In this document: positions 2,490-59,329 of the stretch, piece after piece
Layout of the letters: every line of letters starts with the position of its first letter
How positions within the stretch are numbered: position 1 is the stretch's first letter
Virus record (IMG/VR): IMGVR_UViG_3300038443_002533
Coordinates: 128,001 to 192,000 of that record
Length of the DNA: 64,000 bases
Direction: 5' to 3' (one strand)
From: a virus
Lineage: Duplodnaviria > Caudoviricetes
Made by a program: the position numbers and the translations under genes
The notes under the pieces: generated by a model
What the model saw: only the letters and a program-made list of their open reading frames with translations
What the model was told of the DNA's origin: nothing
The model's database searches: none

Positions 2490-3143
2490 ATGTCGAATAC
2501 TAAAGGTAAGTTTATTACCATCGAGGGAGTGGATGGTAGCGGGAAGACCACCAACATTGGGATATTGGCCGAACACCTACGTTCCCGCGGTTATAAAGTC
2601 ATCACCACCCGCGAACCCGGCGGTAGCGACGTCGCGGAAAAGATTCGCGATATGCTGCTCCATGACAAGATGGATGCTGTTACGGAACTGATGCTGTTTT
2701 TGGCCGCCCGTAACGAACACGTACAAAAGAAAGTCATCCCGCATCTGGAGCAAGGTTATATCGTACTCAGCGACCGGTTCCATGATTCAACATGGGCCTA
2801 TCAAGGCTATGGTCGTGGTATGTCGGACGAATTAGAAGAATTCGGTAAATTCGTGTACGGCGGACTCTTGCCGGATATCACGTTGTTCTTCGATATGCCG
2901 TTCGAAGAAGCTACGCGCCGGCTGAAGCTGCGTACAGATAAGAGTGATCGCTTCGATCAAGAAGTGGAAGCGTTTCGTAGACGGGTTTATGAAGGTTACC
3001 AAAAGCGATTAGGTGGCACCCGCCCGCAAGACCATGTGGTAGGTGGCCGCATTATCCACCGCATCAACGCCCTGCCGGAACCTGAAGTGGTGGCCGACAG
3101 CGTGTGTGCGTGGGCGAATGCCAACTTCGAAAACCTCACCTAA
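2490..3143 (+). CDS. tmk: thymidylate (dTMP) kinase
   Basis: FITIEGVDGSGKTT P-loop, TREPGG, SDRF motifs. Confidence 0.95.
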   Translation: MSNTKGKFITIEGVDGSGKTTNIGILAEHLRSRGYKVITTREPGGSDVAEKIRDMLLHDKMDAVTELMLFLAARNEHVQKKVIPHLEQGYIVLSDRFHDSTWAYQGYGRGMSDELEEFGKFVYGGLLPDITLFFDMPFEEATRRLKLRTDKSDRFDQEVEAFRRRVYEGYQKRLGGTRPQDHVVGGRIIHRINALPEPEVVADSVCAWANANFENLT

Positions 3144-17585: not shown

Positions 17586-17868
17586 TAGGAGTTGTTATGG
17601 ATGATACGCCACAAGACTTGGAAAGCGTGATCAGCCGGACGGCTTTGCCGCAGCTGCAACAATACAACGCGTTGCAAGCCAAGGAACCGATCACGTCGTT
17701 TACCATCACCAACCAACTGCGGATCGCCATGCCTAAGGATGGGGAATCGACCGACCAATCCTGCTTCGAGCAGCTCTGGGTGGCCACCGCCCGTGATCAG
17801 AGTACCTTACAAGACTGGCGTCCAGTACAGACGCTGGAAGAGAAAATCGCTTCGCAAGGGAGTTCGAC

Positions 17869-18120
17869 GTGACTGCCGATATCCGCATCATCGATGGCTT
17901 GACCATCAAACTCATCCCCAAGGACATGTTCAAAGATCGGGATGAGCAAGTCCGTAGTGTGACCTTGACGGCACTCGCCCACATTCAAGACCGCGGTTTG
18001 CGTGTTGAAGAAGTCGTGCGGATCTTCCGCGGTAATGCGTTCGTGGGTGTATCCCGTAAGAACCTCGACGGGTTGGTAGCGTCGTGGGTCGATGTGTGGA
18101 AACGCCATGGCCGCTTCTGA
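17869..18120 (+). CDS. hypothetical protein, paralog of 18107
   Basis: IRI.DG..IK.IP...RG..V.E....FRG...WV..W. Confidence 0.7.
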   Translation: MTADIRIIDGLTIKLIPKDMFKDRDEQVRSVTLTALAHIQDRGLRVEEVVRIFRGNAFVGVSRKNLDGLVASWVDVWKRHGRF

Positions 18121-18382
18121 AGTGGCAAGCACCTCGACCATCCGCATCGACAACGGTAAGTGGGCAAAAGCGATCCCCATCGGGATGCTGTTAGGCCATG
18201 AAGACAAGATCAAAACGTTCTTCCATTGCACGATTACTGGGCTTCTGGCGCGGGGCGTGAAGGTGAAAGAATTCATCGAGTGTTTTCGAGGCGGGAATTA
18301 TAACCACCTGACGATGCAGGAAATGGACTTCTTGCTGCACACCTGGGTGTATTGTTGGGAAAAAAAGGGGCATTTTGAGTAA
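18107..18382 (+). CDS. hypothetical protein, paralog of 17869
   Basis: Same motif pattern. Confidence 0.7.
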   Translation: MAASEVASTSTIRIDNGKWAKAIPIGMLLGHEDKIKTFFHCTITGLLARGVKVKEFIECFRGGNYNHLTMQEMDFLLHTWVYCWEKKGHFE

Positions 18383-18533
18383 TGGCGATAAGCGATTTCG
18401 CGCACATATTACCTCTTTGATCTAGCTCGCATGATGAGAGACCAGTCCTTCGGGGCTGGTCTTTTATGCCGTCATCCGGGTAAAAAACATCCAGAACTCC
18501 GATTCTCTGTATAACCAACAATAAGGAAGCATA

Positions 18534-19079
18534 ATGAACGAAGGTATTTTGTATTGGGATCTCGCCCATCGACTGGATGTCGCGCGTGAAAGTCCGGATG
18601 AGTTCGGTAACGGTCCGATTTACAAGATGGCACAGCTCGATGGCGGCATCAAGTTCTTCATTCTCGCACTGGAAGAGTTGGGCGCCAAGACACGGTACTC
18701 GTGCGAAGGTCACCCATACGGCGCTTACGTGGCGTTTGATGCTCCGGTTCGTCTGATTCGCAGTATCCATTTCACTAACACGTTCACGTTGGTGGCCGAT
18801 CTGAACGAGATGCGTCTTGACGGCATGTGCGACTGCGCGATGTATGCGGATCACAAGCGACACAGAACGGGCCAGGATGCTGCTTTATGGGCAGAAGCGT
18901 ACACCGAAGAAATGCGGGTGGACTTTCTGCGTCAAGCTGCCGACCAATGGATGCGGCGTTTCGGTTATCGCTTACCGAAGTTGCGGCAACAACTGGAAGC
19001 CCTCGCTGCCCAGATTCCGCTGGAACAACAATTATACAACCAACAACAAGGAGCTGTAAATGGCAATTCCCCTGAATGA
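18534..19079 (+). CDS. hypothetical protein (LEELGAKTRYSCEGH)
   Basis: SD AAGGA; SCEGH motif is common in phage proteins. Confidence 0.7.
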   Translation: MNEGILYWDLAHRLDVARESPDEFGNGPIYKMAQLDGGIKFFILALEELGAKTRYSCEGHPYGAYVAFDAPVRLIRSIHFTNTFTLVADLNEMRLDGMCDCAMYADHKRHRTGQDAALWAEAYTEEMRVDFLRQAADQWMRRFGYRLPKLRQQLEALAAQIPLEQQLYNQQQGAVNGNSPE

Positions 19080-30666: not shown

Positions 30667-31203
30667 ATGTCCGATGCTGCGCAACCGCTTTCTTTGAACA
30701 ACATCTCGGAAGAGAAAATCCAACGTTTCAAACAGCGCCCTGAGTTGCTCGATGCGCTGGCGCAGTGGGTGACGTTTGCGGACCGTCGTTTGATTCCGCA
30801 GATGCTGGCACTGGGTGAGTTGGTGCGTGACCTGTATGACCTCCCCGCCGAACTCAAGCTGTACCGTGGCTTTCGGCTGGGGAGCTATCAAGATAGCCTC
30901 GGGATCGATGAAGGTGCACCGATCGGCCAGAGTGTAACTTACACCAGCGACGATCGCTCGCTCTCGTTCAGTACTGAAGAAGCGATCGCGCGGGGATTCG
31001 GTAACGTGGTGGTGTCGACCAAGATCAATCCCAAGAAAGATCCGTGCTTGGTCATCACCGATGAGCTGCTGGTGATCGTGCACGAATTACTCAACTTCAA
31101 AGACCTCAAAACCCAACATGAAGTGATCCTGTTGCCGCCGATCCAGATTCAAGTCCAGGTCGTCAGTAAAGAGTCGAATTCCTTCAGTTGGTTAGCATGG
31201 TGA
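30667..31203 (+). CDS. putative R-S-E type mono-ADP-ribosyltransferase
   Basis: LYRG (R), SLSFST (SxS), TQHEVILLP (QxE) in the correct order and spacing. Confidence 0.6.
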   Translation: MSDAAQPLSLNNISEEKIQRFKQRPELLDALAQWVTFADRRLIPQMLALGELVRDLYDLPAELKLYRGFRLGSYQDSLGIDEGAPIGQSVTYTSDDRSLSFSTEEAIARGFGNVVVSTKINPKKDPCLVITDELLVIVHELLNFKDLKTQHEVILLPPIQIQVQVVSKESNSFSWLAW

Positions 31204-33046: not shown

Positions 33047-33550
33047 ATGAGAATGCAACGACATTTGGCCACCGAGTCGGACCAACCGACAGGCGAAGCC
33101 GAAGATTCACCGGCCTACATCGAAGCGCTGGCCAAAGCGCAGCCGTACATCGAAGAATGGATCGGCTACGACCTGGACAAGACGCTGTTCCGCCATGACA
33201 AGTGGGAAGGTGTCCTGCATTTCGGCGAACCGATCGTACCGATGCTCGACCGGCTCAAGCAAGACCTCGCTAGTGGTAAGCGAGTAAAAATTTTCACGGC
33301 ACGCGTATCCTACGCCGACGAACGCATCAACACCGTCGTTCGTAAAGCGATCCAAGACTTGATGTTCGAGCATACCGGCCAGGTGCTGGAAGTGACCAAC
33401 ATCAAAGACATGGGGATGCGCAATCTGTACGATGACCGCGCCACCGGGGTGATCCCGAACGAAGGGGTGGTCATCGAAGCCCCTAAACACCTGCCGGGCA
33501 CCAGCGCTCAGTTCACCAAAGATCTGAAAGCCGCCCTCGGTCAAGACTAA
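33047..33550 (+). CDS. HAD-superfamily phosphatase (PNKP 3'-phosphatase-like)
   Basis: WIGYDLDKT (DxD), KIFTAR, VTNIKD, LYDDR. Confidence 0.8.
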   Translation: MRMQRHLATESDQPTGEAEDSPAYIEALAKAQPYIEEWIGYDLDKTLFRHDKWEGVLHFGEPIVPMLDRLKQDLASGKRVKIFTARVSYADERINTVVRKAIQDLMFEHTGQVLEVTNIKDMGMRNLYDDRATGVIPNEGVVIEAPKHLPGTSAQFTKDLKAALGQD

Positions 33551-33555
33551 ACACC

Positions 33556-33822
33556 ATGGCACTTATTCCTACTGGCGTTAACATCATCTACGATCTGTTG
33601 AACGCCCCGAAAGACAAGAACCCGCAAGAGCAGATGGCGGAACTGGGCATCACGTGCCAACGTGTTATCCCCGAACCCATCATCCATCTCTGGCGTTTCA
33701 TCTCTGTTGACCGCGCGACGATTCCCGCTGAGTTGCCCCCGTACCTCAGTCTGGTGTATCTGAACGTCCAGCAATGGAACGAAGAACTCGAAACGCTGAA
33801 GCAACTCAGCCTGAAGAAATAA
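33556..33822 (+). CDS. hypothetical protein
   Basis: 88-aa ORF after the HAD gene. Confidence 0.65.
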   Translation: MALIPTGVNIIYDLLNAPKDKNPQEQMAELGITCQRVIPEPIIHLWRFISVDRATIPAELPPYLSLVYLNVQQWNEELETLKQLSLKK

Positions 33823-33874
33823 ACGGCGTACCACCCACTTGACCCCGACCGCAGTCAGGACCAAGTGGTGTAAG

Positions 33875-34225
33875 TTACGGGTTGTACGGCACGGCCAAAC
33901 CGTTGCTGACGAGTTGATCGTTCAGGCTGGTCGAAGTATTCGGCAGATACACATCCGCCAGATAGCGACCATACTTCTCCTTCTTGTCCGCGACGGTTTG
34001 GATCACCACCGGGGCGTTAGCCGGCAGTTGTTGCTGAAGCCAAGCGCGTGAATCTTTCCCGGCTTGGGTGCTGACTTCGGGGGCGTTGATACCGTTGAAG
34101 CGGCAGGTCATGTTGATGTGGATATCGCATCCCAAGTCAACATTGAATTCTGCGGTATCGCCATCGATGACGCGAATCACGGTGGCGTTACGGATGTACA
34201 CATCTTTCTTTTTGGCGGCTGTCAT
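33875..34225 (-). CDS. thermonuclease (staphylococcal nuclease-like)
   Basis: VIRVIDGDT, RFNGINAPE, EKYGRYLA, LN..LV..GLA. Only convincing minus-strand gene. Confidence 0.9.
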   Translation of the reverse strand: MTAAKKKDVYIRNATVIRVIDGDTAEFNVDLGCDIHINMTCRFNGINAPEVSTQAGKDSRAWLQQQLPANAPVVIQTVADKKEKYGRYLADVYLPNTSTSLNDQLVSNGLAVPYNP

Positions 34226-34273
34226 GGTGGGCTCCTATGCAAAGGGGGTTCATAGCATCCGCGCAGTACCAAT

Positions 34274-34428
34274 GGTCAAGATGGCGAAGTGGAAGACGCA
34301 GCTGACGCTCCGGGTGCAAGTGATCAGTATTTGAACGAGCAGTAGGGTATCTACCGGGTCCATGATCGGGGCGGGTACTCAGATAAACTGTTCTAGTAGA
34401 ACGGAGGTTCGATTCCTTCTCTTGACCA
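34274..34428 (+). ncRNA. tRNA-like RNA 1 (155 nt; expanded anticodon and variable regions)
   Basis: GGTCAAGA/TCTTGACC acceptor, Leu/Ser-type D arm GCG-AAGTGGAAGA-CGC, T arm GGAGG-TTCGATT-CCTTC, ~105 nt between. Confidence 0.7.
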
Positions 34429-34439
34429 CTCAGTTTTAT

Positions 34440-34515
34440 GGGGAAGTCGCCCAGCAGGTTTATTGACCTGACCCACTGTAGGCACGCGCAGGTGCGAATC
34501 CTGCCTTCCCCGCCA
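34440..34515 (+). ncRNA. tRNA-like RNA 2 (76 nt; D and anticodon arms fused into one arm)
   Basis: GGGGAAG/CTTCCCC + G + CCA; T arm GCAGG-TGCGAAT-CCTGC. Confidence 0.75.
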
Positions 34516-34532
34516 CTCAACCGTAGTACGTA

Positions 34533-34692
34533 GGGCATGTAGCTCAGTGATAGAGCACCGTCCATTACCCTTGGGGTCGCTGGTTCGAGTCCAGCCTGGG
34601 GAGTATGCGAATACTCGCTGGTAGCTCAGATGGTTAGAGCACAAGGCTTGCTTAGACGGAGGTCGTGGGTTTGATCCCTGCCATGTCCATCA
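34533..34692 (+). ncRNA. tRNA-like RNA 3: twin tRNA (permuted tRNA nested in the anticodon loop of another)
   Basis: Outer GGGCATG/CATGTCC and CCGTC/GACGG. Inner CCTTG...T arm...CTGGGGA-GTAT-GCGA-ATAC-TCGCTGG...D arm...CAAGG. Confidence 0.85.
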
Positions 34693-34698
34693 AGAATT

Positions 34699-34807
34699 CT
34701 TAATAAGTGGTAAAGTAGATCAACGCGGAGAACCGACGCGCTACAAGGGATACCTCGCTCTGGTTGGTTCACTGGAACGAAGGAGTTTGACCCTGCCACT
34801 TATTAAG
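34699..34807 (+). ncRNA. tRNA-like RNA 4 (long closing stem, T-loop-like hairpin, internal domain)
   Basis: 14-bp stem CTTAATAAGTGGTA/TGCCACTTATTAAG; GTTTGACC loop next to the 3' strand. Confidence 0.5.
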
Positions 34808-34826
34808 TGTTTTTAAGTTTCACGTA

Positions 34827-34964
34827 GGGCGTTTAGCTCAGTTGGTAGAGCACGGCTAAAGGTGGGCACCGACAAACCCACACCAGCTTAACAGGCTGGG
34901 GCCGAAAGGCAGTCACCATTCATTAAAGCCGAGGTCATGTGTTCGAATCACGTAACGTCCACCA
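34827..34964 (+). ncRNA. tRNA-like RNA 5 (69-nt three-hairpin insert replacing the anticodon loop)
   Basis: GGGCGTT/AACGTCC+ACCA, canonical D arm, CGGCT/AGCCG stem, AGGTC, ATGTG-TTCGAAT-CACGT. Confidence 0.88.
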
Positions 34965-34973
34965 AGTTTCAAA

Positions 34974-35040
34974 GGGTGTGTAGCTCAGCTGGTAGAGCGT
35001 AGTCATGCAAGATTGTGGGGGTTCGAGTCCCCCCATTCTC
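34974..35040 (+). ncRNA. tRNA-like RNA 6 (67 nt; 6-nt anticodon loop ATGCAA, 1-nt variable region, no CCA)
   Basis: Canonical D arm and GGGGG-TTCGAGT-CCCCC T arm. Confidence 0.7.
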
Positions 35041-35046
35041 TCGATT

Positions 35047-35138
35047 GGGAATGTGGCGGAATTGGTAGACGCGCCGTTCTAACGGACGGTTATCACATTA
35101 GGCTAAGGTCATGGGTTCAAATCCTGTCACATCCACCA
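35047..35138 (+). ncRNA. tRNA-like RNA 7 (Leu-like; anticodon loop collapsed to 4 nt)
   Basis: GCGGAATTGGTAGACGC D arm, CCGT-TCTA-ACGG, long variable region, T arm, CACATCC-ACCA. Confidence 0.72.
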
Positions 35139-35156
35139 AGTTTCAAGCAGTACCGT

Positions 35157-35234
35157 AGGGGAGTCGCCAAGTTGGTCCAAGGCCCCGGATTTTGATTCCG
35201 GCATTCGAAGGTTCGAATCCTTCCTCCTCTGCCA
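35157..35234 (+). tRNA. tRNA-Gln(TTG)
   Basis: Full cloverleaf AGGGGAG/CTCCTCT, CCGGA-TTTTGAT-TCCGG, G-CCA end. Confidence 0.95.
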
Positions 35235-35315
35235 GATTTTCGTAGGACTGTTTGATGAACAGAGTAAAATCATCATGGTAGAGATACCACTTACTAGGCA
35301 CTAGGAGAATGTACC

Positions 35316-35780
35316 ATGGCTGGATTTGTGAAATTGATGTCGAATGAAAACCTGCCGGACGCAAGTCCGTTCAAAGGCTATCAGCTGATCAGCTTACCGG
35401 ACGCTGGCAAGGTCGAATTCAAACGTAATGAGCGAGGTCTCGATACGTGTGTGATCTACACCCCGGAGCATGATCCAGAAGAATACCTGATGTACGGCAA
35501 TGCGTATATCCTGAGCGACTCGGGTAAAACCATTGCTTCCCATGGCACCAACGTGCCCTGCGCATTGGAACCGGGTCAAGAGATCAATGACGCTAAGGTG
35601 GCGGTTAGCGCACTGCTTACGCTGGAACCTGACGATCTGAAAGCGGCCCTTTGCCATCTGGTTGCAACTAAGCCGGAAACCATCCGTGTCATGGGTGGCG
35701 TCATAGCCAATTTGGCGCGGGCCGGAAACGAAGCTGCTATTTACTCAATTCGTCCCGCGGTCGAACACATCAGCACGTAA
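35316..35780 (+). CDS. conserved hypothetical phage protein (GNAYILSDSGKTI motif)
   Basis: SD AGGAG; motif common in phage proteins. Confidence 0.75.
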   Translation: MAGFVKLMSNENLPDASPFKGYQLISLPDAGKVEFKRNERGLDTCVIYTPEHDPEEYLMYGNAYILSDSGKTIASHGTNVPCALEPGQEINDAKVAVSALLTLEPDDLKAALCHLVATKPETIRVMGGVIANLARAGNEAAIYSIRPAVEHIST

Positions 35781-35956
35781 CACCGATCAATGCCCAAGTC
35801 AGTTATTCCCTCCAACCGATTTCGTCATGAAAGATGGCGCATCTGGCTAAAAGTGAATTCCAAGGCCTGACTAGGGCGCCCCTTTGGCTTTATTAGTTGA
35901 AAGAGGTGTTGTGCCACCACACGCCGTCAATCGAGTAGACTAATAAAGCCTTCCCT

Positions 35957-36032
35957 TCCCCGATAGCTCAGCCGGTAGAGCGACGGACTGTTAATCCGCA
36001 GGTCCCTGGTTCGAATCCAGGTCGGGGAGCCA
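35957..36032 (+). tRNA. tRNA-Asn(GTT)
   Basis: TCCCCGA/TCGGGGA, loop CTGTTAA, G-CCA end. Confidence 0.96.
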
Positions 36033-36039
36033 CGAACAT

Positions 36040-36860
36040 AAAAGCTGGAATCTAAGCTAGTAGAGTTATCCTTTAACTTGTGCTGGGGTTGTGTTGTTGA
36101 CACTTTACAACTAAGGCTTGGGTTCCGCCTTTTGTGTTTAACTGTCTTTGGGTTTGACTTGGATCGACCGCGAGTCGCAATTACCATACGAGCGATTACG
36201 ATTATCGAAGAACATATTGGCCTGACTCACAAGTCACCTGGTCAAACCCACCCTTTTTCAGAGGACGCACGTGAGGTCGTGCAGGCTTGAGTATCAAGTC
36301 TAGAATGGGCGTGGCTCCTTACACCTACGGGGATACTTAAGGGAGTCGAGGGAAGTGAGATCTCATCAATCTCCACAATGTGGGTGCAACCCACCCCAAT
36401 ACTCGCACACAGGAACGCCGTGGAAATCGGTGAACAACCAGGAGATGAGCCTGGTCCTCTGAGCTATTCTAAATAAAGGTACTGATGAGCCGTGGAAGTC
36501 GGCCCCTGTGCATACAGGCAAGGTTGCAAACCCTTCGAAACATCTCTTGCGCTTCAAGATACAACGAGATGTATACCAATGGACTTAACAGTGGTAGCCG
36601 TTGCTCTTGTCACCTCCGGGGTCTTGATGGGAGTCTAGTAGCGTTTCTGACACGAGCGCTGAAACTGTACGACTGGTTCAACCCTGTCGGCGTCTGTCAA
36701 ACGTCGTGGAGAGAGGATCAGTAAGTTGTACAACGCGTAAGCTGTGCCGCACGCTCCTAGTGAGCGGGTTCAGTGAGAAGCTAGGTCGTGCAAGACCAAG
36801 TTGTGCAGCCATTGTGAGATTGCGTCGGTTTGGCCAGACTGGCGCAGTTGTATCGGTGTG
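36040..36860 (+). ncRNA. candidate large structured ncRNA (~800 nt)
   Basis: No credible ORF. Perfect 10-bp long-range helix 36149-36158/36241-36250 plus many hairpins. Confidence 0.55.
36478..36577 (+). ncRNA. type I hammerhead ribozyme-like core with multibranched stem II
   Basis: GGTA-CTGATGA-G...C-GAAA-CATCTC...GAGATG-TA-TACC. Confidence 0.6.
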
Positions 36861-36931
36861 AGGCGGGGGAGGGGTGCAAAACTCTCCCCCGTTTCTTATT
36901 CTTTTTATGCCGTCAAAATCTAGGAGTAACT

Positions 36932-37669
36932 ATGTGGAACTTTTTCAAACGACTGTTTGGCGGTGGTAAACGACAAGAACCCCAGATCGATAAGCCGAGC
37001 GGATCGGCGGGCCGCTGCACACCGTACATGACACCGCTCAGTTCCATCAAACCGAAGTCACCGGAGCCCGTTAAAGAAGATCTGAAGCGCCCCAACGGCC
37101 AATGGGAAGAAACGGAAAACCAACGGCCGCCCGAAAGCGTATGGCAACAAAGCTTGCGGCGCGAAATCAATAAGGTTGAAAAACGTCAACGCTACAATGA
37201 AATTTTGAGCCAAGCTGGGATGGATGTTCGCGCCAGGCGATTCGAAGCCGTGCAACAGTCCGTCGATCGGGTTCGCCAAGAAGCACTCAACTCCGCCACC
37301 CCCCAGATGAGTCGACCGCAATTACCGCCCCATGCGTTGACGGATTCGGCGCGCCTGGATTTGGTCCGAAGAGCAACGCTGAGCACCATGTCCCAGCGCC
37401 CAGGATTACAAGCTGGGCTAGACGCGGTTCAGCGTGACATCGAAGCGCGCCGTCGACAGAACGAAGAAGACGAACGTCGTCGCCGTGAAGCCGATGATGA
37501 AGACCGTCGCCGTCGTAACAACGATGACACATTGAATTTGTTGGTAGGCTTATCCTCGATAATTTCTGACACCGTATCCTCATCGTCTGATTCCAGCCCC
37601 AGCTCGGATCCGTTCAGCGGCGGCGGTGGTTCCTTTGACGGCGGTGGTGCTTCTGGAGATTGGTCATGA
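36932..37669 (+). CDS. hypothetical protein with acidic/Arg coiled coil and Gly-Ser tail
   Basis: SD AGGAG before ATG 36932; ends FSGGGGSFDGGGASGDWS. Confidence 0.75.
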   Translation: MWNFFKRLFGGGKRQEPQIDKPSGSAGRCTPYMTPLSSIKPKSPEPVKEDLKRPNGQWEETENQRPPESVWQQSLRREINKVEKRQRYNEILSQAGMDVRARRFEAVQQSVDRVRQEALNSATPQMSRPQLPPHALTDSARLDLVRRATLSTMSQRPGLQAGLDAVQRDIEARRRQNEEDERRRREADDEDRRRRNNDDTLNLLVGLSSIISDTVSSSSDSSPSSDPFSGGGGSFDGGGASGDWS

Positions 37670-37862
37670 CAACCCAAATTTCGCTCGAACGCATTCGTGA
37701 GTTGCAAGCGGAGATCGATCAGATCAACCGACTGCATATCGCTGACGTGGTGATCACCAAGAACGGGAAGCCGCTGGATGTCAGCCCCCGGATCCTCAAC
37801 GACATGCGTCTCACCGGCTTGAATACCTTCGGCCTCTTGAAAGACCTCGATAAACAGAACCC

Positions 37863-38141
37863 ATGAACACATTCACCCAAATCGAACGTTTTCTCGACGA
37901 AAACCGCGGACCAAACCTCTCCGCGAACATGATCGGCATACTCGAAGAAGCCAAGACCCGCGATCTGAGCGTATTCCAATATTACAAAGCGGTCGAAATG
38001 GGTCGAATTGGTAAAGTCTGGGTAATGCCATGGTCCGGTGGAATGGCGATTTCTTTTGGCGATGCTGAAGAAGCCACTCATCTCTGGAGTGACGAGAAAG
38101 GCACTTGGAAGCCCAGTTCGTACTTCCGCCAGTACGTTTAG
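37863..38141 (+). CDS. hypothetical protein
   Basis: ATGA-coupled ORF. Confidence 0.65.
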   Translation: MNTFTQIERFLDENRGPNLSANMIGILEEAKTRDLSVFQYYKAVEMGRIGKVWVMPWSGGMAISFGDAEEATHLWSDEKGTWKPSSYFRQYV

Positions 38142-38370
38142 CAGATTTAGATAAGGAAAGCCATGTGTGAAGAATTGACGTTACATCCACGGGCGATTTA
38201 CGCATATGAGCTGTCGGATATTCAGTTGCGCAGTTTGTACCGCCTCAACAAGAATGACCTCATGTGTGCGTGGCGCACCCCGACCGGGATCGTCGTGTAT
38301 CTCGATGGCCCCAAGCCGAACTGTTACGCGTGGAAGATGTACGGTTGGGAACCTTTTAACGAGGAAGAAA

Positions 38371-38739
38371 ATGGGTAGACATATTGCCAACGGGCAGATC
38401 GAAGTGAGTCTGCATCGGGATGCCGATTTCTCGTCTATGGCTGAGTGCAGTGCTTGGCTGGCCGAGCGTCTGAGATGGTATCCAAAGGAACATTACACGG
38501 TCACGGTCATGGCGGGCGGCACCTACGGCCTGAAAGGGGTGCTTTTCGATCAGATCTTCGAGCATGATTTTACCGCGATGCCAAATGTGAGCATCGTCGT
38601 GAAAAGATGGGACGACCACCCGAGTTTCTCGGCATACCACGGAACGAATCCTTACCCTGGTAACGGAACCCGTGTATTCGGCAATCGGGTTATGGTTGCA
38701 GCAATTCGGGCGATTTATCACCCGCTAGTGGCAAGTTAG
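38371..38739 (+). CDS. hypothetical protein
   Basis: Likely start MGRHIA at 38371. Confidence 0.6.
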   Translation: MGRHIANGQIEVSLHRDADFSSMAECSAWLAERLRWYPKEHYTVTVMAGGTYGLKGVLFDQIFEHDFTAMPNVSIVVKRWDDHPSFSAYHGTNPYPGNGTRVFGNRVMVAAIRAIYHPLVAS

Positions 38740-38823
38740 TAGTATGTAGTACGTAGTAGGTAGTGCATGATTTATCGGTGGAGATGGTGGGATCGAAAAC
38801 TCCATTCACCATCGAGAAAAATC

Positions 38824-39393
38824 ATGAAGAAAATTGCATCTTTGTTTCAACGTAACTATGACGGCGATCGTCAAGTGCGTAATGAAGTCGTTCCGGGTTC
38901 GGAATGGGTAATCCACGGCGAAGGGTATGCGACCCGTAAATGGGATGGCATGGCTATTAAGCTGGAGAACGCTCAGTTCTTTAAGCGTTATGATGCGAAG
39001 GCTGGCAGAACACCGCCCCCTGAATTCATTCCTGCCCAACCGGCGCCTGATCCACAAACTGGCCACTGGCCTGGTTGGGTGCCGTTGCAAGGGAAAGAAC
39101 TCAATCGCGTAGTAGCGGCGTATCAAGACAGCGGCATCACGGAAGACGGCACATTCGAATTCTGTGGACCGACGATTGGTACCCGCCATGGCGCCAACCC
39201 TGAACGGCTCACCAAGCACATCCTGGTGCCCCACGGGCAAGACATCCTGGCCGACTGTCCGCGTGACTTCGATGGGCTCAAAGCCTATCTGGCGAATGCG
39301 GATATCGAAGGGGTGGTGTGGTGGCATCCGGATGGTCGTAAGGTCAAGATCAAAGCAGCTGATTTTGGCCTCGTCAGGCACGCAGTAATCTGA
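38824..39393 (+). CDS. DUF5565 / RLIG1(C12orf29)-like ATP-dependent RNA ligase
   Basis: Motif I TRKWDG, KRYD, GHWPGW, GTFEFCG, L.PHG, motif IV EGVVW, motif V KIK. Confidence 0.75.
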   Translation: MKKIASLFQRNYDGDRQVRNEVVPGSEWVIHGEGYATRKWDGMAIKLENAQFFKRYDAKAGRTPPPEFIPAQPAPDPQTGHWPGWVPLQGKELNRVVAAYQDSGITEDGTFEFCGPTIGTRHGANPERLTKHILVPHGQDILADCPRDFDGLKAYLANADIEGVVWWHPDGRKVKIKAADFGLVRHAVI

Positions 39394-58066: not shown

Positions 58067-59329
58067 ATGCAGATGTATTGGGTAGGTGGCGCCGTCCGCG
58101 ATCGACTCCTCGGGATGCAACCGAAAGATATCGATGTCGTGGTGGTGGGTTCCACGGCCGAAGAAATGTTGGATAATGGCTTTCGTCAAATCGGTAAAGA
58201 CTTCCCGATCTTTATCAGTCGGCTCGACGAGCTGCATGGCGATAAAGCCGAGTATTCGCTCGCGCGTCGTTCCCGCAAAAATGGAAATGCCGATTTCGGT
58301 CCGGAAGTCACCCTCAAAGAAGATCTCGGTAAACGGGATCTGACCATCAACGCCATGGCCATCGAGATCAATGGCTTCCTGAATAGCCATACGTTTCAGC
58401 TGGTCGACCCGTATTGCGGGCACGATGATCTGCTGAATAAGGTGTTGCGGATGGTGAGCAGCGAAGCCTTCTATGAAGACCCGATCCGGGTGTTGCGTGT
58501 GGCGAGATTCGCTGCGCGTTACCCGGACTTCAGGATCGATCCCGACACCATGGAAACCATGTGGACCATGGTGTTCGAGGGGTTGCTCGATAACCTCGTC
58601 CCGGAACGGGTGTGGAAGGAACTGTCGCGGGGTCTGATGGAAGTCAAGCCTTCGCGGATGTTGCAAGTCTTGCGGCAATGCGGAGCGTTGGAAAAGATTC
58701 TGCCGGAAGTCGATGCGCTGTACGGTGTCCCGCAACCGGAGAAACACCACCCGGAAGTCGACACGGGTATCCACATCGAGCAAGTCCTCGATTATGCGGC
58801 CAGCCAGAACTTCGATTTGCCAGTTCGGTTCGCGTGCTTGATGCATGATCTCGGCAAAGCCTTGTCGCCGAAGGACACCTGGCCGGCCCACCACGGGCAT
58901 GAAGGGGCGGGAGCGGACCTCGTGTCGAATGTGTGCGTGCGTTTGAACGTCCCGATGACCCTCGCCAAAATCGCGATCCAAACGACGACGTGGCACGGTG
59001 TGATCCACCAGTCCATGAAGGTCAAGCACACCACGATCGTGAAGCTCTTGCGGCACTGCGATGCGTTCCGTAACCCGGACCGTTTCCAATACGTGCTGCA
59101 AGCCTGCATGTGCGATGCCCGCGGGCGTAAGTCCGACACGGTCAGTTTCGAAAACGTCGAGTACCCGCAGGCCATGCGCTTGAGCGGTGCTCTGTGGGCT
59201 GCCCGCCAAATCAAGGGCAATGAGATCGCGAAGCAATTCCAAGATCGTCCGGAATACATCGCAGTCAGTATGCATGCGGCACGTGCTCGCGCCATCAAAG
59301 CGTTCGACCGTCAACAGAAAGGAGCTTAA
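58067..59329 (+). CDS. cca: class II tRNA nucleotidyltransferase with HD domain (multifunctional CCA protein-like)
   Basis: VGGAVRD.LLG, DIDVVV, GKDFP.F, EDL.KRD.TINAMA, EDP.RVLR.ARFAAR, ERVW.E, HHPE.D.G.H, HDLGK. Confidence 0.93.
   Translation: MQMYWVGGAVRDRLLGMQPKDIDVVVVGSTAEEMLDNGFRQIGKDFPIFISRLDELHGDKAEYSLARRSRKNGNADFGPEVTLKEDLGKRDLTINAMAIEINGFLNSHTFQLVDPYCGHDDLLNKVLRMVSSEAFYEDPIRVLRVARFAARYPDFRIDPDTMETMWTMVFEGLLDNLVPERVWKELSRGLMEVKPSRMLQVLRQCGALEKILPEVDALYGVPQPEKHHPEVDTGIHIEQVLDYAASQNFDLPVRFACLMHDLGKALSPKDTWPAHHGHEGAGADLVSNVCVRLNVPMTLAKIAIQTTTWHGVIHQSMKVKHTTIVKLLRHCDAFRNPDRFQYVLQACMCDARGRKSDTVSFENVEYPQAMRLSGALWAARQIKGNEIAKQFQDRPEYIAVSMHAARARAIKAFDRQQKGA

Follow-up and report, generated by a model that had tools for sequence, protein, structure and literature searches.

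Independently assorting enzyme genes and an RLIG1-family RNA ligase around a tRNA-like array in a nucleus-forming jumbo phage

The window analyzed here is a 64,000-nucleotide stretch of phage DNA, bases 128001–192000 of a virus record (IMG/VR record IMGVR_UViG_3300038443_002533) that is complete at 272,470 bp and has direct terminal repeats; the coding lies nearly all on the plus strand. At positions 33047–39393 it holds an array of tRNA-shaped RNAs, preceded by the genes for a HAD phosphatase and a staphylococcal-nuclease-type nuclease (SNase) and followed by the gene for an RLIG1-family (DUF5565/RLIG1-like) RNA ligase. A preliminary description of this DNA had joined the three enzymes into a single pathway, in which SNase cuts RNA, the HAD enzyme heals the ends, and the ligase seals them. 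The three genes, and that of a CCA-adding enzyme farther downstream, were all found where that description had placed them. A coherent three-step route is unsupported, however, as there is no 5'-kinase in the complete genome and the three genes assort independently across relatives. The features on which the argument turns are these:

33047..33550, plus strand: capless (C0) HAD phosphatase of 167 residues, with its core at residues 35–148 after an N-terminal helix (motifs, structural model)
33824..34270, no strand assigned: 447-nt insertion/deletion cassette carrying the SNase gene (RNA-library contigs)
33875..34225, minus strand: SNase, 116 residues (PF00565, phrog_452)
34274..35234, plus strand: array of tRNA-shaped RNAs ending in a canonical tRNA-Gln at 35157–35234 (ARAGORN, Rfam, T-arm scan)
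38824..39393, plus strand: minimal RLIG1-family ATP-dependent RNA ligase, 189 residues (Pfam, PHROG, profile alignment, invariant active site)
58067..59329, plus strand: class II CCA-adding enzyme with an HD phosphohydrolase domain (PF01743, PF12627, PF01966)
2490..3143, plus strand: thymidylate kinase, the sole small P-loop kinase in the genome and not a polynucleotide kinase (PF02223, 1.6e-43)

Cleavage by SNase leaves 3'-phosphate (3'-P) and 5'-hydroxyl (5'-OH) ends. RLIG1 enzymes require a 5'-phosphate (5'-P) and a 3'-hydroxyl (3'-OH) (PMC11494293). The proposed route therefore cannot do without a 5'-kinase. The earlier remark that none is visible in the window holds, and the same is true of the genome as a whole: a search of the complete genome with PF13671 (AAA_33) returned one weak match, the thymidylate kinase, and a Walker-A scan of all open reading frames (ORFs) of the 272-kb genome found no small kinase besides it. 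A 456-residue Walker-A protein that was considered as a kinase was ruled out, being an AAA ATPase. With no kinase in the genome, the products of SNase cannot reach the ligase. The complete genome likewise gave no match for PNK3P (PF08645), RtcB, Rnl2, 2H phosphoesterase, or Ro/TROVE. It gave none for Rnl1 either, but the Rnl1 control search was blank everywhere, which makes this last result uninformative.

The proposed cutter, moreover, is removable. The enzyme matches PF00565 with 36 bits (E 8e-9, cut-off 21) and phrog_452 at 3e-33; its IDGDT motif, R42, E50, and R87 are invariant in five relatives, and an asparagine (GINAPE) takes the Ca-ligand position in all five. In contigs of a ~96% identical relative, which come from two RNA libraries of one study, position 33823 is followed, after 8 other letters, by position 34271. 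The SNase gene is a cleanly bounded, removable cassette and is dispensable. Homologues are found in 425 phage records, mostly of cyanophages without an RLIG1-like ligase, and a search of IMG/VR with the SNase returned one contig only (G001). The gene lies inside or beside the tRNA array in G000, L045, L047/48, and G001, and it is not found within ±10 kb of the array in the relative L043, which keeps the array. The earlier statement that it is the only minus-strand gene is true locally, and the gene calls of relatives agree; when minus-strand genes were checked across the window, the minus-strand ORFs at 17797–18863 had no family match either way. The case of SNase shows that the adjacency of genes in a hypervariable island is a poor guide to pathway membership.

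Co-occurrence of the genes in other phages, which had been put forward as a check on the pathway, also speaks against it, as no module of HAD, SNase, and ligase is conserved. Within the phage's own clade, the HAD gene occurs in 5 of 5 members; three lineages have SNase, and two have the ligase. In L045, HAD and SNase are present and no ligase lies within 10 kb downstream. L043 has HAD only in the ±10 kb that were read, with no ligase in the syntenic slot, and its 269-kb contig yielded no ligase homologue among the best 120 matches; the absence of the ligase from the relatives L043, L045, and L047 is judged from the syntenic slot and the homologue list rather than from a search of the full records. 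G001, a complete phage of 322 kb that is more distant, has SNase, the array, and the ligase, and no HAD. In RP12, SNase lies 6 kb from the ligase, with an RNA polymerase and other genes between them, and there is again no HAD. The FLC phages carry the ligase only, with neither HAD nor SNase.

The pathway could still operate as first proposed if SNase or another nuclease cuts host tRNAs or the tRNA-like RNAs, the HAD enzyme removes the 3'-P, a host kinase or one that we failed to recognize phosphorylates the 5' end, and the RLIG1-like enzyme seals. This seems to us very unlikely. It is true that the three enzyme types are intact, that the closest fold to that of the HAD is the phosphatase of T4 Pnkp, that SNase lies in or beside the array in the four cases named above, and that RNA-repair sets made up of ligases, HAD phosphatases, kinases, and CCA enzymes are known from jumbo phages (PMC7824862). 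Nevertheless, in addition to the missing kinase and the presence/absence behavior of the cassette, SNase is non-specific and is common in phages that lack this ligase. Reciprocally, the ligase has no HAD, SNase, or kinase homologue beside it in 37 of 41 other loci, the exceptions being RP12, G001, and L047/48, where SNase is nearby. A precedent for adjacency of this kind is found in T4, whose repair genes pseT and rnlA adjoin denA, which encodes a host-DNA nuclease without a functional link to repair.

Two other parts of the earlier account fared better than SNase as the cutter: the connection of the ligase with tRNA, which is supported, and the closeness of the HAD to the Pnkp phosphatase, which is plausible. 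By homology, the ligase is a genuine RLIG1-family enzyme for which ATP-dependent joining of 5'-P and 3'-OH ends is predicted. It scores 29.5 bits against PF17720 (RLIG1; cut-off 25) and 1e-71 against phrog_14301, and the profile of its family finds the Yasminevirus RLIG1 (PDB 9c6l) at E 1e-18 with the lysine of the KxDG motif aligned. This lysine, K39, aligns with the one mutated in 9c6m, and the GTxE and EG motifs align to 9c6l. K39, E112, E162-G163, and K175/K177 are invariant in 24 ligase sequences; in human RLIG1, the catalytic lysine and the two active-site glutamates are K57, E195, and E250. We placed the start of the gene at 38824 because the homologues begin with MKKI. Homologues form at least 2318 clusters in public data. 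Members of the family, including a homologue from a Cellulophaga phage, seal 5'-P/3'-OH tRNA halves, that is, nicks in the anticodon loop, in vitro, and a counter-defense role at tRNA was already predicted for viral members in the 2024 paper on RLIG1 (PMC11494293).

Across the family, the ligase keeps no constant company. There is no recurrent protein neighbor in the 41 other loci with a ligase homologue, and a first look at their flanks gave no HAD, SNase, or CCA homologue. In a mycobacteriophage, in a Cellulophaga phage, and on a Janthinobacterium chromosome, it is solitary, and the genes around it are unrelated. The lack of a healing partner across the family suggests that, as a rule, the enzyme acts by itself and on ends that are ready for ligation. 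One apparent partner, a kinase beside the ligase on the 523-kb contig L060, was rejected as CoaE, followed by a CoaD-like transferase, which belongs to CoA metabolism and is not a polynucleotide kinase. At L060 6001–8490, the ligase is followed by a 411-residue CoaE-type kinase fusion and the CoaD-like nucleotidyltransferase, which look like phage-borne CoA-synthesis genes.

What does recur near the ligase is tRNA. In a home-made strict scan for T-arms, a same-strand tRNA or T-arm element was found within 1 kb of the ligase in 5–6 of 40 loci, where about 1 is expected, an enrichment of about five-fold. The loci are RP12 and FLC4-3B (L001/L002, counted once), L006, L038, L039, and L041, and L062 adds another. 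This enrichment and the in vitro activity of family members on tRNA halves together support a putative tRNA-directed role of the ligase.

In RP12 (L001 5690–5875) and FLC4-3B (L002 5680–5860), the ligase is preceded, at a distance of ~150 nt, by a structured element that has a perfect T-arm and a 3' part conserved from one phage to the other. ARAGORN in intron mode calls this element a tRNA with a 93–189-nt insert. The Rfam tRNA model gave no match to it at E<=0.1, and its acceptor pairing is imperfect by eye; the designation as tRNA-like with an insert thus comes from the permissive intron mode of ARAGORN and from the T-arm. In L062, an HNH gene sits between the ligase and a tRNA-Met.

The HAD enzyme is harder to place. 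It has no Pfam or NCBIfam match of its own, and a search of IMG/VR with the protein gave no match, yet all four HAD motifs (D42xD44xT46, T84-A-R86, K120, and D129D130) are invariant in 23 homologues. The best fold match of its AlphaFold model (pLDDT 86) is the T4 Pnkp phosphatase 5uj0_B (Z 9.9, rmsd 3.1, 105 residues aligned), followed by 1ltq (Z 9.4), BT_0820 (2obb, 8.8), Pnkp1 of the Pnkp/Hen1 system (8.6), and GmhB (7.4); the Foldseek E-values for the model are weak, ~0.01–0.06. In a profile alignment to T4 Pnkp (hhalign), DLDKT pairs with DVDGT and T-A-R with S-G-R, at 24% probability. The sole Pfam family that recurs among the homologues is PF25109 (HAD_PNKP, reference region T4 Pnkp residues 157–299), which matches 3 of the 23, weakly, with a best E of 0.007, and the window HAD itself gave no match at its curated cut-off. 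From these three lines of evidence, each weak but in agreement, we conclude that the modeled likeness to the Pnkp phosphatase domain is real, that a Pnkp-like phosphatase is plausible, and that membership in PNKP is not established. The genomic setting of the HAD differs among phages. In the clade, it lies directly upstream of the tRNA array in 5 of 5 members despite the local turnover of genes; in BcepSaruman and in the podophage Vibrio phage PVA7, its homologues sit among genes for DNA replication and nucleotide metabolism. In one relative (L046 8886–9464), a gene for an HNH/NUMOD4 homing endonuclease lies just upstream of HAD, an instance of the island attracting mobile genes.

The surrounding region changes quickly. 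Its conserved flanks are the homologues of the genes at 30667 and 42311, and among relatives there is heavy gene turnover in between. The array, whose start at 34274 adjoins HAD and SNase, is 22 kb away from the gene for the CCA enzyme. From the last tRNA to the ligase it is 2.8 kb, with a non-coding stretch of ~870 nt, a terminator-like hairpin, and three ORFs between. The relatives, which were found through the HAD protein, carry genes for chimallin, a phiKZ-type capsid protein, and Tad1-like proteins just upstream; these genes identify the phage as a nucleus-forming (chimallin-type), phiKZ-like jumbo phage. It was sampled from rhizosphere or root.

Such turnover raises the question of whether the co-location means anything. 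The island may simply gather accessory genes, with the ligase acting on mRNA or rRNA, or elsewhere, and with HAD and SNase serving DNA or nucleotide metabolism. The DNA-replication and nucleotide modules in which the HAD homologues of BcepSaruman and PVA7 lie would fit this account, as would the reported link of human Rlig1 to rRNA integrity (PMC13244148) and the finding that ~85% of ligase loci have no tRNA nearby. The account is somewhat unlikely in our estimation, since tRNA and T-arm elements are enriched near the ligase, the HAD remains at the array head, and the family is active on tRNA in vitro (PMC11494293).

The RNA-coding part of the island and the small ORFs around it add the following features:

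33556..33822, plus strand: small ORF of 88 residues between HAD and the array (81% homologue at the same place in L043)
35316..35780, plus strand: clade-specific ORF inside the array, 154 residues (five homologues only)
35957..36032, plus strand: canonical tRNA-Asn (GUU) (ARAGORN; Rfam 69.5 bits)
36033..36900, plus strand: ORF-free stretch, probably a long non-coding RNA, ending in a terminator-like hairpin at 36860–36895 (conservation)
36482..36573, plus strand: hammerhead-like motif consisting of CUGAUGA, a 48-nt three-hairpin domain, CGAAA, stem III, and GUA, with a predicted cut after 36573 (descriptor, covariation)

A strict T-arm scan found nine T-arm motifs at 34403–36005 and about 5 in all the remaining DNA of the 272-kb genome. 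Both canonical tRNAs of the genome fall at 34974–36032, as do the four tRNA matches that Rfam gives in the window. The array elements, including a twin element and insert-bearing ones, are kept at 70–90% identity in relatives, which suggests that the twin and insert elements are functional RNAs. The sole two canonical tRNAs of this phage, tRNA-Gln(UUG) at 35157–35234 and tRNA-Asn(GUU) at 35957–36032, both have CCA encoded in the genome. Read from the sequence, the twin tRNA at 34533–34692 has an outer acceptor stem with a G3-U70 wobble, the alanine identity pair, and the first 5 nt of its 3' junction loop (CTTGC) and the last 2 nt of its 5' junction loop (AC) would give, if joined, CUUGCAC, an Ala-type anticodon loop with UGC. 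The center of the twin (34558–34662), made up of a T arm, a GCGA-capped acceptor hairpin, and a D arm, has a weak match to YrlA (Y-RNA-like), at 31 bits against a gathering threshold of 69 bits.

Of the two ORFs, that at 35316–35780 gave nothing usable from Pfam, NCBIfam, PHROGs, or the Atlas, and its five homologues are all on related jumbo-phage contigs, including G001, where it is beside tRNA-Asn and SNase. In L045 and L047, other small ORFs take the place of the one at 33556–33822. The CCA enzyme has domains and a PHROG match as expected: the PolyA_pol head (PF01743), the RNA-binding domain (PF12627), and the HD domain (PF01966) are all above their cut-offs, and the match to PHROG tRNA nucleotidyltransferases (phrog_2279-type; phrog_2244) is at 5e-105.

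The stretch at 36033–36900 recurs in conserved form in L043, L045, L047, and L048, and L062 has part of it, just upstream of the L062 ligase; the final hairpin of the stretch has 14 pairs and a T-rich tail. Among the ORFs between this stretch and the ligase, a TTG start at 36830 lies upstream of the hairpin, and the gene therefore probably begins near 36932, and an ATG at 38206 looks spurious, its first 55 residues not being protein-like. Within the stretch lies the hammerhead-like motif. A descriptor of core plus stems matches once in the 272-kb genome and, in each relative, once at the homologous site; shuffled genomes give 0.1 matches each. Stems I and III covary, RNAalifold gives the same stems, and a three-hairpin domain of 47–49 nt stands where stem II belongs; the Rfam hammerhead models gave no match at E<=1. 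With CUGAUGA, GAAA, UH, and covarying stems, the motif has a hammerhead-type core, and we regard it as a predicted self-cleaver that is hammerhead-like. If active, it would supply an RNA cut in cis, and the 5'-OH product would be unusable by the window ligase.

These elements suggest a use for the ligase within the phage itself. The ligase, perhaps with the HAD, could mature the phage's own RNAs by rejoining the exons of insert-bearing tRNA-like RNAs, by closing the permuted inner tRNA of the twin, or by rejoining or circularizing the hammerhead-cut RNA. The conservation of the insert-bearing and twin elements is consistent with this, as are the putative insert tRNA upstream of the ligase in RP12 and FLC4-3B and the presence of a covarying hammerhead-like motif in the same island, given that viroid hammerhead products are circularized by tRNA ligase (PMC5895719). 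We nevertheless consider such maturation quite unlikely. L043 keeps the twin and the insert element without a ligase in the syntenic slot, and its contig is not among the best 120 ligase homologues, most ligase loci have no tRNA-like element, and the terminator-like hairpin parts the island from the ligase operon. The genome has no match for the tRNA-splicing endonuclease PF01974, which does match archaeal controls, and hammerhead products with 5'-OH ends are unusable without a kinase.

Direct signs of cutting and rejoining were also sought. The RNA-library contigs X2 and X3, with ~96% identity, include the array, ORF 35316, the ligase, and the 3' end of HAD and show no spliced or rejoined twin or insert RNAs; this is weak evidence, as neither absence nor strand nor transcription can be read from contigs. 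Joints in DNA runs were rejected as rejoined forms, their sides being only ~20 nt and from the tRNAs of other organisms. The most far-reaching form of the idea, a phage cut-and-rejoin system in which tRNA-like transcripts with inserts or with swapped halves, and possibly the RNA cut by the hammerhead, are cleaved and then spliced or circularized by the RLIG1-like ligase, strikes us as highly doubtful. If true, a bacterial virus would for the first time be seen to splice tRNA, or to mature permuted tRNA, by means of a protein ligase.

Our best explanation, to which we assign a probability of about one in two, is that the locus is a fast-changing tRNA/non-coding-RNA island of a nucleus-forming jumbo phage in which the accessory genes are separate, and that the ligase is a stand-alone sealer of 5'-P/3'-OH nicks in tRNA. 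The parts would then act as follows. First, the ligase would be adenylylated on K39 and join 5'-phosphate to 3'-hydroxyl RNA ends, a chemistry taken from its homologues, and in doing so may reseal host or phage tRNAs nicked to 5'-P/3'-OH ends. Such ends would be left by metal-dependent defense or toxin tRNases, and no end-healing would be needed. Second, the HAD, as a Pnkp-like 3'-phosphatase at the array head, may clear 3'-phosphates from the ends of RNA, DNA, or nucleotides, for example before CCA re-addition; without a kinase, it would not make breaks of the SNase or anticodon-nuclease type ligatable. Third, the SNase cassette most likely degrades host nucleic acid while the phage DNA stays shielded. 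Finally, the CCA/HD enzyme would repair the 3' ends of tRNAs, because the tRNAs of the phage already encode CCA.

Several observations weigh against a stand-alone ligase in an island of unconnected genes. The closest structural neighbor of the HAD acts in RNA repair as a phosphatase, in keeping with a heal step. In four related lineages (G000, L047/48, G001, and RP12), the distance between SNase and the ligase is within 5–10 kb, which could reflect function, although shared ancestry explains it equally. The enrichment of tRNA-like elements depends on the home-made scan, and the element in RP12 and the FLC phages is unrecognized by Rfam.

If a sealing-only, kinase-less RLIG1 is indeed tied to tRNA genes, this would indicate host tRNases whose products have 5'-P/3'-OH ends. 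More broadly, the locus bears on tRNA repair in nucleus-forming jumbo phages, of the sort represented by the counter-defense of T4 Pnkp and Rnl1, and on the role of RLIG1 in viruses. The hammerhead-like motif and the conserved long non-coding RNA beside the array may be the more original leads.

The locus can be compared with several known systems. As in the rsr-Y RNA-rtcB operon, a tRNA-like RNA module with a T arm, a capped acceptor, and a D arm lies near an RNA ligase gene, but the phage genome gave no match for Ro/TROVE or RtcB, and the YrlA score is 31 bits against 69. Theta ribozymes sit beside phage tRNAs (PMC10879173), and here, as with these and with viroid hammerheads joined by tRNA ligase (PMC5895719), a small motif resembling a self-cleaver lies in the transcription unit of the array with an RNA ligase gene nearby. 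Theta ribozymes, however, have an HDV-like core, whereas that of the window motif is hammerhead-type with a large three-hairpin domain for stem II, and the window ligase cannot use 5'-OH ends.

Another parallel is the pair of T4 Pnkp and Rnl1, which counters the anticodon nuclease PrrC. The window, too, has a predicted ATP-dependent 5'-P/3'-OH ligase and a DxDxT HAD whose modeled fold resembles that of the Pnkp phosphatase (Z 9.9), and in both genomes a gene for a host-DNA nuclease is nearby (denA in T4, SNase here). The differences are that the HAD stands alone, with no 5'-kinase domain or gene in the phage genome, that the ligase is RLIG1 and not Rnl1, and that HAD and ligase are 5 kb apart, in different transcription units, and not co-inherited. 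The RNA-repair sets of jumbo phages, as described by Iyer et al. (2021; PMC7824862), comprise tRNAs, ATP-grasp ligases, kinases, HAD phosphatases, and CCA enzymes; they are rarer in phiKZ-like (group 1) phages, and the ligases listed are Rnl1, Rnl2, and RtcB, with matching kinases. The window shares with these sets the tRNAs, an ATP-grasp-type ligase, a HAD phosphatase, and a CCA enzyme, and it departs from them in that its ligase is of the RLIG1 type and has no kinase.

The ligase can also be compared with the RLIG1/C12orf29 family, represented by human RLIG1, Yasminevirus RLIG1, and the Cellulophaga phage homologue. It passes the PF17720 cut-off, and its catalytic lysine and both glutamate motifs align to 9c6l. 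At 189 residues, it is shorter than these, with their 277–325 residues, being without the N-terminal ~45–70 residues and most of an internal insert, and it has an insertion, GTRHGANPE, that is common only to its closest relatives. The window ligase is a kinase-less member of this known kind and not a new system.

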